From Candidatus Hydrothermales bacterium (lineage in GTDB: Bacteria > Hydrothermota > Hydrothermia > Hydrothermales > JAJRUZ01): a stretch of 64,000 nucleotides of DNA. The translations under genes were made by a program, and so were the position numbers. Under the pieces are notes generated by a model, which saw nothing but the letters and a program-made list of their open reading frames with translations, ran no database searches and had not been told where the DNA came from. This document shows, piece by piece, positions 20,854-60,156 of the stretch (positions are counted from its first letter, which is position 1; each line of letters starts with the position of its first letter). Location: the NCBI GenBank assembly GCA_039630575.1, contig JBCNUW010000002.1, positions 76,668 through 140,667 on the forward strand, in the 5' to 3' direction.

Positions 20854-20973
<120 letters not shown>

Positions 20974-31565: not shown

Positions 31566-32780
31566 TTAATCTATGATATCTGTTATTACTCCTGCACCAA
31601 CTGTTTTTCCGCCTTCTCTTATAGCAAACCGAAGTTCCTTCTCCATTGCAACAGGGTACATAAGCTCAACCTCAAGATTAACATGATCACCAGGCATAAC
31701 CATTTCTCTCCCTTCTGGAAGTTTTATTGAACCTGTGACATCTGTTGTTCTAAAATAAAATTGAGGCTTATAACCTGTAAAGAAAGGAGTATGTCTTCCT
31801 CCTTCCTCTTTTGTAAGAACATAAACCTGTGCCCTAAATTTTGTGTGGGGTGTAATAGTGTTGGGTTTTGCAAGAACCATTCCTCTTTCAACCTCGTCCT
31901 TACCTATTCCTCTTAAAAGAATACCCACATTATCTCCTGCTCTTGCCTCATCAAGTACCTTTCTAAACATTTCAACAGATGTAGCTACGGTTTTTCGAGT
32001 GGGTCCAAAACCAACAATCTCTACCTCATCTCCAGGCTTTAAAGTTCCTCTTTCAACTCTTCCTGTTACTACTGTTCCTCTACCAGTAATTGAGAAAACA
32101 TCTTCAATAGCCATTAAAAAGGGTCTATCTATTTCTCTTATAGGATCTGGAATATAATTATCCATTGCATCTATTAACTCCCAAATTTTACCACAATGTT
32201 CACATTCCCTCTTACCACATCCACACCTCATTGCATTTAAAGCACTACCTCTTATAACAGGAACCTCATTTCCTGGAAACTCGTATTTTTTCAAAAGATC
32301 TCTCACCTCTTCTTCAACAAGATCTACTATCTCAGGATCATCTACTGCATCTACCTTGTTAATAAATACAACTATATAAGGCACGTTTACCTGTCTTGCC
32401 AAAAGAACATGTTCTCTTGTCTGCGGCATAACTGAATCAACAGCTGAAACTACCAAAATAGAACCATCCATTTGAGCAGCACCTGTTATCATGTTCTTTA
32501 TATAGTCATGATGACCAGGACAATCGATATGGGCATAATGTCTTTTCTCTGACTCATACTCTACATGAGCAAGATTAACGGTTAAAATCTTAGTTTCATC
32601 CCTTCTAAAAAGCTTAACATCAGCCTTTGCTACCTGCTCATACTCCTGCTCAACAGCAAGACCATGCTTGGAAAGTACTTTTGTAATAGCAGAAGTCAAA
32701 GTAGTCTTACCATGGTCAATGTGACCTATCGTACCCACATTAACATGCGTCTTCTTTCTTTCAAATTTAGGTTTACTCAT
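31566..32780 (-). CDS. tuf: Elongation factor Tu, with a Cys4 insertion in domain I
   Basis: [23 protein letters not shown] and the other G-motifs. Start reassigned to [10 protein letters not shown] at 32780; the 16-aa extension in the ORF track is translated 5'-UTR containing the GGTTCAAATCC motif. Insertion [13 protein letters not shown] sits where E. coli has EGDAEWEAK. Confidence 0.9.
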
Positions 32781-32865
32781 TTTAAAAATATAACTTTCCA
32801 GGGATTTGAACCCATTGGGTCCTTTCAAAATAATTTTAAAATTTTAAAATAATAATTTAATTATT

Positions 32866-35836: not shown

Positions 35837-36350
35837 TAATTTTTTTAAAATGCTATTTTTATTATGGATTTGAACCGAAATTTAATATAATTATAAAAGT
35901 TAAAAAGAAAAAAATCAAATAATTTTATAATTTTATAACATTTTAGACTGATTAAAATATTACTTTAAAGGTTCGTAATGTATAATTCCTTAAACATTTA
36001 AAACTTTTTTAAAGAACATGATAAATTAACATTCACAATCTTACTTTGTAATAAATAAACAAAAACAAATTTTTCCTAATATGAATCTACAGATTACTTT
36101 CTCAACTCTTACATAAAACTTTCTTTGGATTTAATTAGATTATGATCATTAAAAACTATGATCTATTTTCATACAAAGTTTACAAGGTAACATCTTAAAC
36201 TCATCTCATCTAACTTTTTTTACTTTCCTATCTTTGTCGGAGTTCTATCAGCGATTTTTACACTTCAGAGTTCGAATAAAATATCTAAAATAAGTAAGTT
36301 CCCTTTAACTTTTGACTTACATCATTCTTTTATTATAAACATCAAAACAA

Positions 36351-36387: not shown

Positions 36388-36460
36388 GCCCGCGTAGCTC
36401 AGGCGGTAGAGCACTTCCTTGGTAAGGAAGAGGCCGCCGGTTCGAGTCCGGCCGCGGGCT
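36388..36460 (+). tRNA. tRNA-Thr (anticodon GGT), no encoded CCA
   Basis: Cloverleaf: acceptor GCCCGCG/CGCGGGC. D-arm GCTC-AGGCGGTA-GAGC. Anticodon arm CTTCC-TTGGTAA-GGAAG, giving GGT. T-arm GCCGG-TTCGAGT-CCGGC. Discriminator T. Confidence 0.85.
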
Positions 36461-36473
36461 TTTAAATTAAAAA

Positions 36474-37559
36474 TTGGAACTGAAAACTCCCAAGAAAAGC
36501 TTTAGAAAAGCTCTTGAAGTACTTAAAAAAGGAGGAGTTATAGCTATACCAACTGACACAGTTTCAGGACTTGTAACACCATATTGGTCTCAAGAGGGAG
36601 TTAAAAGAATCTTTTCTATTAAAAAAAGAGAAAGTGAAAAAACTCTTGGTCTTTTTATCTCTCAATCAAAAGAACTTAGACTCTTTACAAAAAACATAAC
36701 AGAAACAAGAAAAAGATTGATACATAACTTGTGGCCAGGATCTATATCTCTTTTATTTAAAGCAAAAGAAAATTTACCTGAATATATTGTCCATAGAGAA
36801 AAAAAAACAGTATCTGTTAGAATCCCAAATCATCCTGTTCCACTTTCCCTTTGCAGTTTAGCAGGACCTCTTGTACAAACTTCAGTTAATATCTCTGGTC
36901 ATAAAGAAATAAATGATTATGAAGAGATTGAAAAAAAATTTGGTAAATATGTTGATTTTGTTTATCCTCAAAACTCTTATGGAAATTCTGCCTCAACAAT
37001 TCTTGACGTATCCAAATATCCCTTTTTGTTATTACGAAAAGGACCTATAGGTATAACTCAGATTGAAAGTTTGCTTTTAAAAAAAATAAAAATTTCAAAA
37101 TCCATCAAAACAAACATCCTATTTGTTTGCAGTGGAAACACATGTAGATCTCCAATGGCTATGGGTATAATGTATTCACTTTTAAAACAAAATCTAAGGG
37201 ATTTGGTAAATATTAAATCAGCAGGAGTTGACACAATAGATGGACTTTTAATTGCTGAAAATACACTTAAAGTACTTGAGAAGGTATACAACTTAGATCT
37301 CAGTTACTATAGAACTAGGAAACTAAAAAAAGATGATCTTGAATGGGCAGACTTCATTTATGTTATGGAAAAAAAACACTTAAGAGAAATTCAAAAAATG
37401 GGATTTTATGAAAAAGCAAAACTGTTAAACCTCATAGATGGATTTAAAGATATACCTGACCCATTCGGTAAGGACTATAGCTACTATCTTTATGTATCAA
37501 AACTAATTGAAAAAAATATAAAATTGATTGTTAAAGAAATAGAGTATAGATACTCATGA
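36474..37559 (+). CDS. Fusion protein: L-threonylcarbamoyladenylate synthase (YrdC/TsaC domain) + low-molecular-weight protein phosphatase (LMW-PTP/arginine phosphatase-like)
   Basis: N-terminal GGVIAIPTDTVSGLV (YrdC PTDTVYGL motif). C-terminal ILFVCSGNTCRSPMAMGIMY (CX5R P-loop of LMW-PTP) with a downstream DP motif. Starts with TTG directly after the tRNA. Stop TGA overlaps the purM ATG. Confidence 0.7.
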   Translation: MELKTPKKSFRKALEVLKKGGVIAIPTDTVSGLVTPYWSQEGVKRIFSIKKRESEKTLGLFISQSKELRLFTKNITETRKRLIHNLWPGSISLLFKAKENLPEYIVHREKKTVSVRIPNHPVPLSLCSLAGPLVQTSVNISGHKEINDYEEIEKKFGKYVDFVYPQNSYGNSASTILDVSKYPFLLLRKGPIGITQIESLLLKKIKISKSIKTNILFVCSGNTCRSPMAMGIMYSLLKQNLRDLVNIKSAGVDTIDGLLIAENTLKVLEKVYNLDLSYYRTRKLKKDDLEWADFIYVMEKKHLREIQKMGFYEKAKLLNLIDGFKDIPDPFGKDYSYYLYVSKLIEKNIKLIVKEIEYRYS

Positions 37560-41583: not shown

Positions 41584-42129
41584 TTGTATTACATAAAAAG
41601 GGAAGAATGGTTAAAAAAAAGTATAACAGAAAGGATAAAGAATGTTAATATAAAACCTATTGTTATCATTCACCATACAGCAACACCAAAAAAGGAATAT
41701 CAGGGGGATATCAATTATTTAGATAGGATTCACAGAGAGAAAGGTTTCATAATGATCGGTTATCATTTTATTATAGCTCCTGATGGTAAAGTATTTGAAG
41801 GAAGAAAGATTAACGAGGAGGGAGCTCATACAAAGAGGTTTAACAGCTTTTTAGGAATTGCATTAATTGGAAACTTTGAGGAAGAGGAAATGGAAAAAAG
41901 GCAGTTATTTTCCCTATTAAATTTTATGAGTTATTTAGAAAAGATTTTTTTTATAAATAAATTTTCTTTTCACTTTATGCTGAATGAAAAAACTTTATGT
42001 GGAAAAAAAATTTTTGACAAGTTAGTGAAAAATAGAAATAAAAGAGTGTTTAAATTTCCAGATGATTTGTTTTATAATTTAATAGGTTCAAATCCATTTA
42101 CAGAAGATTTTAGTAAAAGGAGGGACTAA
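41584..42129 (+). CDS. N-acetylmuramoyl-L-alanine amidase (Amidase_2/PGRP fold)
   Basis: IVIIHHTATP, GYHFIIAPDGKVFEGR and EGAHTKRFNSFLGIALIGNF match the zinc-binding His/Cys region of AmpD/AmiD-type amidases. Confidence 0.7.
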   Translation: MYYIKREEWLKKSITERIKNVNIKPIVIIHHTATPKKEYQGDINYLDRIHREKGFIMIGYHFIIAPDGKVFEGRKINEEGAHTKRFNSFLGIALIGNFEEEEMEKRQLFSLLNFMSYLEKIFFINKFSFHFMLNEKTLCGKKIFDKLVKNRNKRVFKFPDDLFYNLIGSNPFTEDFSKRRD

Positions 42130-45005: not shown

Positions 45006-45016
45006 TTAAATTAAAA

Positions 45017-45047
45017 GCCCCTCCCAAGAAGAAATAAAGGGAGGGGC
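45017..45047 (-). terminator. Rho-independent terminator (9-bp GC stem) after the BNR/T9SS gene
   Basis: GCCCCTCCC-aagaagaaataaa-GGGAGGGGC is a perfect 9-bp stem. On the minus-strand transcript the stem is followed by TTTTAATTT. Confidence 0.7.
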
Positions 45048-45078
45048 CTTTTATAAATCTCTAAACTTCTGCTATTTT

Positions 45079-46803: not shown

Positions 46804-46858
46804 TTAAAACCTCCTTTTTTTTAGGGAATTGAACCCTTCTTTGTTTTTTATATTATAT

Positions 46859-47743
46859 CTAATCATTCATAAGCTCTTCAATCTTTAAAAGAATTTTCAG
46901 ATGTGAAGATGGGTCAAAAGGGTCATCAGGATAATCTATCCAACCTGATAACTTTAACACATCAACTGCATTTGCGTAAAGTCCTTCTTTAAAGTAAACA
47001 TAAGCAGCTGCTCCAAGTATGTTAGTGAATTTAATAAAAGGATAGTGAGGAAAATAGAAAGCCCTACTTCTTTTTGCAAGTGAATAGAGATATTCAGCAG
47101 ACAAAGATCTTTTATCTTGAGCAAGATAAATCAAACCAATCCCTGCCCATGCCCAGAAGAATATATCGTCTGTTGGACTTTGAGGTTTATAATAGGTATA
47201 GTCAATATAAGTTACAGTATCAGGTGGTGTCCCTTTAAAATAAACAAGAGTATCATCAAAATAAATTGGGCTGTGAACATCAGCTGGTGCTTCGATAACA
47301 TTTGCGATCCATACTATATTCCTCTTTTTTGTCTTTATCGCCCAAGTGGCTCCGTAAGGTAAAGACTGTGGCCTTATAACAGTAGCTACTTCCTTAAACC
47401 TTCTCTCGACAAGAGATATTCCGTCAATTGCAAGTATAAGAGAAAAATAAGAAAGAGCCGAAGATAGATCATAATCCTTTTTTGAAATTAAAGTATAACC
47501 TTTACCAAGTAAAGCTTCTCTATCACGTAGATTCAAAGTTATAAGAGAATCAAACCAGAATTCTGCAACATCAAATTCTCCCCTATCATAATAATCCCAA
47601 GCCCTCTGAAGTATAAGATCCCTCGAGGGTTCTGCCTCAAATTCAGGTTCTTCTTTCTTACATGACATAAGAAAATATATTATTGAAAAAAACACAAAAA
47701 GATATTTTATTTTTTTCATTTTCCCCTCCTTATTTTGTATCAA
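46859..47743 (-). CDS. Lipoprotein with TPR-like repeats
   Basis: Signal peptide with lipobox-like LMSC. Helical repeats. Confidence 0.45.
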   Translation of the reverse strand: MIQNKEGKMKKIKYLFVFFSIIYFLMSCKKEEPEFEAEPSRDLILQRAWDYYDRGEFDVAEFWFDSLITLNLRDREALLGKGYTLISKKDYDLSSALSYFSLILAIDGISLVERRFKEVATVIRPQSLPYGATWAIKTKKRNIVWIANVIEAPADVHSPIYFDDTLVYFKGTPPDTVTYIDYTYYKPQSPTDDIFFWAWAGIGLIYLAQDKRSLSAEYLYSLAKRSRAFYFPHYPFIKFTNILGAAAYVYFKEGLYANAVDVLKLSGWIDYPDDPFDPSSHLKILLKIEELMND

Positions 47744-59093: not shown

Positions 59094-59759
59094 TTATTTT
59101 ACTTTAGTTTCAAGAACATATTCAATTAAAGTGTTTGCTGCTTCCTCCATTTCTCTTGAAAAAGCATTAATCCTTGAGGAAAAAAAGGTGTGAAAAATTG
59201 CAACTGGTGCTGCTATTAAAAGACCTGTAGCAGTTGTAATTAGAGCTTCAGAAATTCCTGCAGCTACAAGAGTTGGCTCAACTTCTCCAGCCGCTGCTAC
59301 TGCTTGAAAGGCTCTAATCATACCTGTTACTGTTCCTAAAAATCCTAAAATAGGAGCTATAGTTGTAAAGGAAGCAAGCCAAAGCATACCCCTATCAAGG
59401 AAAGCAAGCTCAGTTGTTGCTCTCCTTGCAACATTTTCTTCTATTATTTCCTTAGAATTTCCTGCTTTCTCAAGAACAGCCTGACAGATTTTTGAAACAA
59501 CAGAAGTATTCCTTGAGCAATAGTCCATTGCTTCCGACAAACCACTAGTTTCAATCAAATCAATAACATCAACAACAAATCTTCTTGGATTTGTTCTTAA
59601 CCTAAAAAGAGTATAAAACCTTTCAATAATTATCACAACAGATAATATAGCAACAAGCAGTAAAAGCCACATTACTCCTCCACCCTTATGGAAATAGTCT
59701 ACAAGACTTTCTATTACTCCTTGCTGGCCTATTATTAAAGTTGTTAAAATTCCACTCAT
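59094..59759 (-). CDS. exbB: MotA/TolQ/ExbB proton channel protein
   Basis: Three TM segments with the conserved C-terminal TM2/TM3 region ...APILGFLGTVTGMIRAF... Confidence 0.8.
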   Translation of the reverse strand: MSGILTTLIIGQQGVIESLVDYFHKGGGVMWLLLLVAILSVVIIIERFYTLFRLRTNPRRFVVDVIDLIETSGLSEAMDYCSRNTSVVSKICQAVLEKAGNSKEIIEENVARRATTELAFLDRGMLWLASFTTIAPILGFLGTVTGMIRAFQAVAAAGEVEPTLVAAGISEALITTATGLLIAAPVAIFHTFFSSRINAFSREMEEAANTLIEYVLETKVK

Positions 59760-59805
59760 TTTAATTTAAATTGTTTTTGTGGAATTGAACCCTTTACAGA
59801 GTCTA

Positions 59806-60156
59806 TCATCTCGAAACCCAATAAAGATAGATGGATGTTGCTAAAAATGAAAAAAGAGACCCTAATAAAAAAAACAAATTCTCAAAAAAACTAAGCTGAA
59901 AAGAATTCAAAATAATTTCAAAAAGTTCAAAACCAGCTACCTTTAATCTTGGATAAACAAAAACAATTTTATAAAAATGAATTATAGAAGCAAGAAGAAG
60001 AAAAAAAGCCCCGATTAACGGAAAAACAGTAAGAAATTTTGGTTTTCTCAAAAGCATTAGCATTCTTGAAAGTATACCAGAAAAATAAAAAAGTGAAAAA
60101 ACAAATAAAAGAGTCCCAATAAAAAATAGAATTTCTGCCCTTATATCAAATTTCAT
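59806..60156 (-). CDS. Small polytopic membrane protein (116 aa)
   Basis: About 4 hydrophobic segments. Co-directional with and downstream of ftsE. Confidence 0.4.
   Translation of the reverse strand: MKFDIRAEILFFIGTLLFVFSLFYFSGILSRMLMLLRKPKFLTVFPLIGAFFLLLASIIHFYKIVFVYPRLKVAGFELFEIILNSFQLSFFENLFFLLGSLFSFLATSIYLYWVSR

Follow-up and report, generated by a model that had tools for sequence, protein, structure and literature searches.

A conserved T-arm-like element in the putative mRNA leaders of core genes in an AT-rich candidate division WOR-3 clade

An 11-nt element, GGTTCAAWTCC, was found upstream of the start codons of five genes in the window, as we call the whole 64-kb stretch of DNA that was analyzed. 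The element is conserved at the same sites in related genomes, has the sequence profile of a tRNA T-loop, is flanked by co-varying bases, and keeps a limited range of distances to the ATG codon and, in many instances, to an exact TATAAT box. The best reading of these observations is a leader signal that acts after transcription. Our tentative preference, to which we give a probability of roughly 0.45, is a cis-acting T-loop mini-hairpin in the mRNA leader, which would be bound by a partner, cap the 5′ end, and raise expression.

The sequence GGTTCAAWTCC matched exactly five times in the 64-kb window, against an expectation of 0.14 and a maximum of one in 100 dinucleotide shuffles. All five copies were in the sense orientation relative to the downstream gene and lay 21–35 nt 5′ of its ATG (Table 1). 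The initial annotation had listed five sense copies with gaps of 21 nt (tuf, BNR gene, and exbB), 29 nt (rpsL), and 35 nt (mdh), and the count over the window reproduced this list. With the three variable positions relaxed (GGTTCNANNCC), seven matches were obtained against 0.9 expected, of which two were additional: one is the T-arm of tRNA-Thr, and the other lies antisense to fusA in a coding stretch with conservation across phyla. Allowing one or two mismatches gave hardly any enrichment of copies (57 versus 41 expected), and none of them preceded a start codon. The element is sharply defined, without degenerate copies.

Based on NCBIfam and Pfam, the downstream genes encode EF-Tu, S12, malate dehydrogenase, a Por_Secre_tail/BNR protein (T9SS-tail gene), and a MotA/TolQ/ExbB-family protein. 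The matches of the last protein to the TolQ and ExbB families were below both curated cut-offs, and its identity was assigned from these sub-threshold matches together with the ExbD and TonB_C genes that follow in relatives. With the flanking g and c (32813 and 32801), the tuf copy gives a 3-bp stem and a 7-nt loop, and the copy of the T9SS-tail gene has a 4-bp stem. The mdh copy lies in frame within the last codons, at the 3′ end, of the Amidase_2 gene. Residues 186–196 of the EF-Tu form a four-cysteine stretch that resembles a zinc-ribbon-type motif and is identical in the WOR-3 relative L001. The T9SS-tail gene is separated from its neighbor by an inverted repeat that resembles a terminator hairpin.

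Table 1. Coordinates of the element copies, promoter boxes, and other features, given for the window or, where an L-number is stated, for the locus of a relative
Feature	Position	Strand	Details
Element copy, tuf	32802-32812	(-)	GGTTCAAATCC; 21-nt A/U-rich spacer; ATG 32780-32778; no Shine-Dalgarno sequence
Element copy, rpsL	35866-35876	(-)	GGTTCAAATCC; 29-nt spacer; ATG 35836-35834; no Shine-Dalgarno sequence
Element copy, mdh	42085-42095	(+)	GGTTCAAATCC; 35-nt spacer with GGAGG; ATG 42131
Element copy, T9SS-tail/BNR gene	46825-46835	(-)	GGTTCAATTCC; 21-nt spacer with GGAGG; ATG 46803-46801
Element copy, exbB/tolQ	59781-59791	(-)	GGTTCAATTCC; 21-nt spacer; ATG 59759-59757; no Shine-Dalgarno sequence
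Sigma-70-type promoter, rpsL	35890-35918	(-)	TTGATT (35918-35913), 17 nt, TATAAT (35895-35890)
TATAAT box, mdh	42073-42078	(+)	6 nt before the mdh copy
Sigma-70-type promoter match, T9SS-tail gene	46852-46881	(-)	TTGAAG, 18 nt, TATAAT; -10 box ends 16 nt before the element
fusA-tuf G/C hairpin	L001 11470-11520; L017 9430-9470; L097 990-1040; L106 1100-1140		CCCC...GGGG
Mini-ORF, tuf	32778-32815	(-)	runs through the element copy
Mini-ORF, exbB	59757-59809	(-)	runs through the element copy
Four-cysteine stretch of EF-Tu	32193-32225	(-)	
5S rRNA gene	20856-20972	(+)	
tRNA-Thr(GGT)	36388-36460	(+)	
Sua5/YciO/YrdC-family gene	36474-37559	(+)	TTG start
Inverted repeat	45006-45078	(-)	cccctccc...gggagggg
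Retropepsin-like genes	L001 8454-8834 and 12777-13178	(+)	PF13975, PF13650

The window DNA has a G+C content of 31%, and the genome closest to it is a 'candidate division WOR-3' assembly whose EF-G is 75% identical. Homologues of Mdh formed a tight clade with 79–92% identity, labelled WOR-3 or 'Candidatus Hydrothermales', and the next relatives fell to 66%; the ExbB homologues gave the same picture. The cultured WOR-3 strain sy37 appears G+C-rich, as judged from two published primer sequences alone, so it probably does not belong to this AT-rich clade. The str-operon, mdh, and exbB regions of about nine genomes (loci L001, L016–L018, and L096–L110) were used as the clade sample, and about 90 loci of more distant lineages as the outgroup sample. 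Gene order around the 32–64-kb portion of the window was kept within the clade. No 16S rRNA gene was present in the approximately 110 fetched loci. The 5S rRNA gene of the window is isolated: the 64 kb contain neither a 23S nor a 16S rRNA gene, and the TATAAT directly upstream of the 5S gene (ttataatataatG) suggests that it is unlinked and separately transcribed.

In total, 42 instances of the element were found at nine gene sites in these related genomes. It was kept before tuf in nine of nine genomes, before rpsL and mdh in nine of nine instances each, before the T9SS-tail gene in six of six, and before exbB in four of four, the relatives with the exbB copy being L108, L109, and L110. The rpsL copy in L018 was the variant GGTTCTATCCC, and the mdh copy in two lineages was GGTCCRAATCC. 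Two genomes had a further copy before the gene for a 488-aa protein of unknown function, and L018 had one before yet another gene. In L001, where retropepsin-like genes are inserted in the str/S10 operon, copies were found before rpsG and rpsJ directly after them. The two inserted genes are paralogous, encode retropepsin-like aspartyl proteases, and follow rpsL and tuf; each insertion is followed by an element copy and then by the next ribosomal gene, and the window genome has neither insertion.

The core of the element was kept at the same sites while the surrounding non-coding sequence had diverged, and this pattern points to purifying selection on the core. Outside the clade, the pattern was found only in tRNA genes and coding sequence (1.29 Mb of loci, mostly from outgroup lineages), and the leader element was absent from all outgroup loci. 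The earlier proposal of a lineage-specific, promoter-proximal 5′-leader element is supported by this same-site conservation in about nine WOR-3 genomes, by its absence from the outgroups, and by the TATAAT boxes upstream (see below).

The consensus of the 42 instances was GGTTC(A)ANYCC. The bases G52, G53, T54, A58, C61, and C62 were conserved in 100% of the instances, T55 in 95%, C56 in 98%, and A57 in 88% (G three times and T twice); position 59 was any base, and position 60 was a pyrimidine in 93%. The tRNA T-loop/TruB consensus is GUUCNANNC, with a 7-nt loop closed by G53-C61 (PMC13492117, PMC5340967). As in the tRNA T-arm, the element has a 7-nt loop in which the closing G53-C61, U54 and A58 (the reverse-Hoogsteen partners), U55, and C56 are conserved and positions 57, 59, and 60 are free. 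In this comparison, the invariant positions coincide with the T-loop's structural core, and the variable positions with those left free in tRNAs. The same 11-mer pattern formed the T-arm of 96 of the 108 tRNA genes in the fetched loci. The resemblance to a T-arm pointed out in the initial annotation was therefore strengthened, both by the distribution of invariant and variable positions and by the co-variation of the flanking pair described below. The rule is broken in a few copies (a C replaces U55 in two mdh lineages, a G replaces C56 once, and a U replaces A57 twice), and these changes count against the reading as a T-arm mimic.

The element differs from tRNA in having no cloverleaf, acceptor stem, or D-arm, in being located in mRNA leaders, where its distance to the start codon is set, and in its preference for A57 (88%), whereas G57 prevailed in the tRNAs of the same data (74%); G52-C62 is invariant in the element. 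ARAGORN and Rfam revealed no tRNA at any site, which bore out the earlier statement that no cloverleaf surrounds the element: the only tRNA that ARAGORN detected in the window was tRNA-Thr, which is at none of the five sites, and Rfam at gathering thresholds yielded only the 5S rRNA and this tRNA in the window, with no family for the element. Permissive Rfam 15 scans of the tuf and rpsL leaders gave only a 13-nt, 5.7-bit match to the T-arm of tmRNA. On sequence grounds, the element would be a sense-strand mimic of the T-arm with a short stem. The tRNA-Thr(GGT) gene of the window ends 13 nt before a gene of the Sua5/YciO/YrdC family, which belongs to the threonylcarbamoyl-adenosine pathway, and in all clade loci that include this gene, the tRNA is again found shortly before it.

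The bases flanking the core paired more often than expected. Pair 51-63 was present in 34 of the 42 instances, versus 55% expected from column composition (G-C 19, A-U 11, U-A 3, and G-U 1), and it switched inside orthologous series, among G-C, G-U, and A-U in mdh and between A-U and U-A in rpsL. Pair 50-64 was present in 25 of the 42 instances, versus 43% expected, and the fourth pair alternated among A-U, U-A, and G-U in the T9SS-tail series. Beyond 3–4 bp, pairing was at chance level in the 42 instances, which showed no longer acceptor-like stem and no conserved larger leader structure. None of 500 shuffles attained the observed covariation score. The slid-register control was modestly worse than the true register (64.5% versus 68% paired), a small margin that is explained by the A/T runs of the flanks. 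The stem supported by this covariation is usually 3–4 bp long, shorter than the 5 bp of tRNA. The minimum-free-energy fold was precisely the T-arm-like hairpin in nine of ten tested cases, with low nearest-neighbour folding energies of -0.4 to -6 kcal/mol, and three of the five copies in the window lineage had only two G-C pairs (2 bp). These weak stems count against our preferred reading; a simple stabilizer hairpin would be selected for the strength of its stem and not for the sequence of its loop.

An exact TATAAT was located 6–17 nt upstream of the element in 24 of the 42 instances; by a rough estimate from base composition, the chance of finding it in a 12-position window is a few per cent. 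The distances fell into two classes, 6–9 nt (mdh and exbB) and 13–17 nt (rpsL, the T9SS-tail gene, and some tuf instances). The box was found 13–17 nt upstream in nine of nine rpsL instances, 6–9 nt upstream in nine of nine mdh instances, and 6–7 nt upstream of the exbB copy in L109 and L110. The initial annotation had placed TATAAT 6–16 nt before the element at rpsL, the BNR gene, and mdh, and this is correct, the distances being 13, 16, and 6 nt, respectively. For tuf, TATAAT was found 35 nt upstream in L001 and was not found in the window, so not every copy need be at a primary 5′ end. A sigma-70 consensus scan, which gave 65 matches versus 62 expected, is uninformative alone in DNA of 31% G+C, and the promoter argument is based on the exact TATAAT conserved across relatives.

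Transcription usually starts about 7 nt after the -10 box. From the conserved boxes, we infer that the mRNA begins zero to about ten nucleotides before G52, which would place the element at or near the 5′ end; for mdh, the predicted transcript start is on or adjoining the first G of the element. The two genomes of the mdh series with a 6-nt gap from the -10 box were without flank pairing, and gaps of 8–9 nt went with stems of 3–6 bp. With the box only 6 nt away, the stem flank would be untranscribed, which may be why these mdh stems are the shortest. We rejected the element as a -35 or -10 box, since the spacing misfits, a conserved TATAAT lies upstream, and TTCAAA taken as a -35 box would put the start inside the coding sequence. 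A leaderless-type reading was likewise rejected because of the conserved TATAAT boxes upstream of the element. Codon adaptation as a proxy for expression gave no discrimination in this AT-rich genome. A G/C-rich hairpin lies between the fusA stop codon and the tuf element in several relatives, though not in the window lineage, and may act as a terminator or attenuator of fusA.

The gap between the element and the ATG was 19–35 nt, with a median of 23 nt and a mode of 21–24 nt (42 instances), and the spacer was A/U-rich. The element was never closer than 19 nt to the ATG, and it occurred with and without a Shine-Dalgarno sequence. As had been stated for the window, some element genes carry one and tuf and exbB do not; mdh and the T9SS-tail gene have one, and rpsL also has none. 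The element is not itself a Shine-Dalgarno sequence, because it has no GGAGG-like core to match the CCUCC at the 16S 3′ end, it is located 19–35 nt upstream, and real GGAGG sites occur between it and the start codon at mdh and the T9SS-tail gene.

The element might, in another reading, be a translation enhancer that replaces the Shine-Dalgarno sequence: the T-arm mimic would dock on the ribosome, for instance where the elbow of a tRNA is otherwise contacted, and the start codon about 21–25 nt downstream would enter the P site. A strong GGAGG 7–10 nt before the start, without the element, is found at tuf and rpsL in essentially all outgroup lineages, including the nearest outgroup, L032, in which the N-terminal segment of the tuf product is 90% and S12 is 85% identical; in the clade, the element is present at both genes and the Shine-Dalgarno sequence is absent. 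This exchange favors replacement, as do the peak of the spacing at 21–24 nt, the tuf spacing of 21–25 nt in nine genomes despite a diverged spacer sequence, and the rpsG and rpsJ genes of L001, which are without a Shine-Dalgarno sequence and each have an element 22–24 nt upstream. On the other hand, mdh, the T9SS-tail gene, and g1609 carry both the element and a strong Shine-Dalgarno sequence, about half of the window genes have no Shine-Dalgarno sequence anyway, and the spacing varies within orthologous series (mdh 23–35 nt and rpsL 21–30 nt), more so than the distance to the -10 box. On balance, we consider replacement unlikely, although it is the strongest of the alternatives. Its specific form, in which a tRNA-elbow mimic has supplanted the Shine-Dalgarno sequence at rpsL and tuf and a T-loop-contacting ribosomal site or a T-loop enzyme loads the ribosome at a set distance, is more doubtful still.

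The position immediately after conserved -10 boxes would also suit a DNA operator, at which a clade-specific transcription factor would bind an 11-bp duplex at about +1 to +20 and co-regulate core genes, for instance, through repression when growth is slow. Repressors commonly bind just after -10 boxes, and the sharply defined core with no degenerate copies also speaks for such a site. However, all 42 copies were on the sense strand, the flanks co-vary as base pairs including G-U, which fits RNA rather than a duplex site, and some copies lie between operon genes without an obvious promoter. Under this reading, it would be a coincidence that the invariant and the variable positions both agree with the T-loop. 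We regard an operator as improbable.

Copies at the fusA-tuf, amidase-mdh, and ORF-exbB junctions and before rpsG and rpsJ of L001 are inside apparent operons and could instead mark RNA processing, in which a tRNA-like hairpin would be cut by a tRNA-maturation nuclease of the RNase P/RNase Z type or by another nuclease, dividing operon transcripts and setting mRNA 5′ ends in the manner of plant-mitochondrial t-elements. The T-arm belongs to the minimal recognition unit of RNase P/RNase Z-type enzymes. Against this reading, the element has no acceptor-like stem, pairing past 3–4 bp is at chance, and ARAGORN and Rfam gave no tRNA-like fold; moreover, with a conserved promoter directly upstream, no processing is needed at mdh, rpsL, and exbB, and if RNase Z-like cleavage took place about 11 nt downstream, the T9SS-tail gene would lose part of its Shine-Dalgarno sequence. 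A processing signal therefore seems slightly less probable even than an operator.

The complement of the element had been noted to resemble the 790 loop of 16S rRNA, and about ten pairs, with one mismatch and one bulge, can be drawn between the window versions of the element and GGAUUAGAUACC of the E. coli loop. Such pairing was not supported: the partners of A787 and U788 are the freely varying positions 59 and 60 (element positions 8–9), the mostly conserved A57 (88%, element position 6) would face a mismatch, the GG/CC of the 790 hairpin is already paired in the ribosome, and a universal loop contrasts with an element known from one clade only. We give very little credence to leader pairing with this loop. 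The 5S rRNA in the window had no complement to the element.

Decayed tRNA genes, a short upstream coding frame (Gly-Ser-x-Pro), and chance, taken together, are the least credible origin, since the core is kept at nine unrelated gene sites while the flanks diverge and chance predicts 0.14 copies, even though tRNA genes often precede tuf in other bacteria and ATG-initiated mini-ORFs run through the window tuf and exbB copies and end in an ATGA overlap with the gene start. The start of the exbB mini-ORF also overlaps the stop codon of the preceding gene. The two mini-ORFs are not conserved in relatives and are probably incidental. An upstream ORF or peptide was rejected, as the instances share no common frame, start, or stop, and synonymous changes of GGT and TCA were never seen.

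We thus return to the T-loop mini-hairpin in the leader as our preferred reading. The hairpin would consist of a 2–4-bp stem closed by G53-C61 and a 7-nt loop, UUCAANY, and it would come before any other structured feature of the mRNA, zero to about ten nucleotides past the start site, followed by an A/U-rich single-stranded spacer of at least 19 nt and then the start codon. The loop would take the T-loop fold and be recognized by a cellular T-loop-binding partner, for which TruB/TrmA-type T-arm enzymes, another tRNA-elbow-binding protein, and the ribosome are candidates. TruB and Pus4 modify 3-bp stem-loops with the T-loop consensus in vitro, and 2 bp of stem are sufficient for TRUB1 (PMC13492117). 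Since these enzymes accept stems of 2–3 bp, the leaders, which have the required sequence, are plausible substrates for a putative modification. A compact or protein-bound 5′ end may shield the transcript from decay that starts at the 5′ end, and a hairpin just outside the ribosome footprint may lead to higher expression of the core-gene set. The effects proposed here on stability and translation, like the transcript 5′ ends, the T-loop fold, and the partner, are predictions from the sequence pattern.

Leader hairpins and tRNA-like features are both known from other systems. The 5′ stabilizer stem-loops of abundant mRNAs, such as those of the E. coli ompA leader and of Bacillus, are gene-specific and defined by stem stability. 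The element would resemble them in that its hairpin is predicted to lie a few nucleotides from the transcript start, ahead of the ribosome binding region, whether or not a Shine-Dalgarno sequence is present, and it differs in its weak stems and in a shared loop sequence conserved across unrelated genes. Upstream translational enhancers of strongly expressed genes, such as 'epsilon' of phage T7 gene 10 and A/U-rich S1 sites, are unstructured, and epsilon has been proposed to pair with 16S rRNA. Like them, the element is short and lies about 20–30 nt before the start codon; unlike them, it combines a G/C-clamped hairpin with a tRNA-like loop, and it had no identified rRNA complement. Plant-mitochondrial t-elements, which RNase P or RNase Z cuts, include an acceptor-like stem. 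They are likewise tRNA-like features outside tRNA genes that adjoin mRNA ends, whereas the element mimics the T-arm only.

A further likeness in form is to the eukaryotic TRUB1/Pus4 mRNA hairpins, short stem-loops with the T-loop consensus GUUCNANNC (PMC5340967, PMC13492117), for which stems of 2–3 bp are enough in reporter and in vitro assays (PMC13492117, PMC5340967). The eukaryotic sites are scattered and mostly unconserved, with no fixed position, whereas the hairpins of this clade are positionally fixed and conserved clade-wide. In bacteria, TruB is stated to target tRNAs only (PMC13492117). No earlier description was found in the literature on GGTTCAA/GGUUCAA in leaders or on WOR-3, and there is no Rfam family for the element, in agreement with the initial annotation, which knew of no described equivalent. 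What is distinctive is that a shared tRNA-type loop, and not stem strength, is conserved across unrelated genes; otherwise, the element combines a leader hairpin with tRNA mimicry.

If the element acts as RNA, it would be a compact expression signal of 11–17 nt common to different genes, and the most conserved structural motif of tRNA would be found in a new place, the 5′ end of mRNA. Bacteria, and not eukaryotes alone, would then carry selected T-loop look-alikes in their mRNAs, and nature would have provided, in this clade, a way to test for an action of T-arm enzymes or tRNA-elbow-binding sites on mRNAs of bacteria. If loading by an elbow mimic proved true, bacterial initiation could be based on tRNA mimicry. 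Because the Shine-Dalgarno sequence has been exchanged at tuf and rpsL, ideas on how translation-initiation signals evolve can be tested directly within a single clade. In practical terms, the element may serve as an operon-start marker for the annotation of WOR-3 genomes and is a candidate small leader part for thermophile expression systems.
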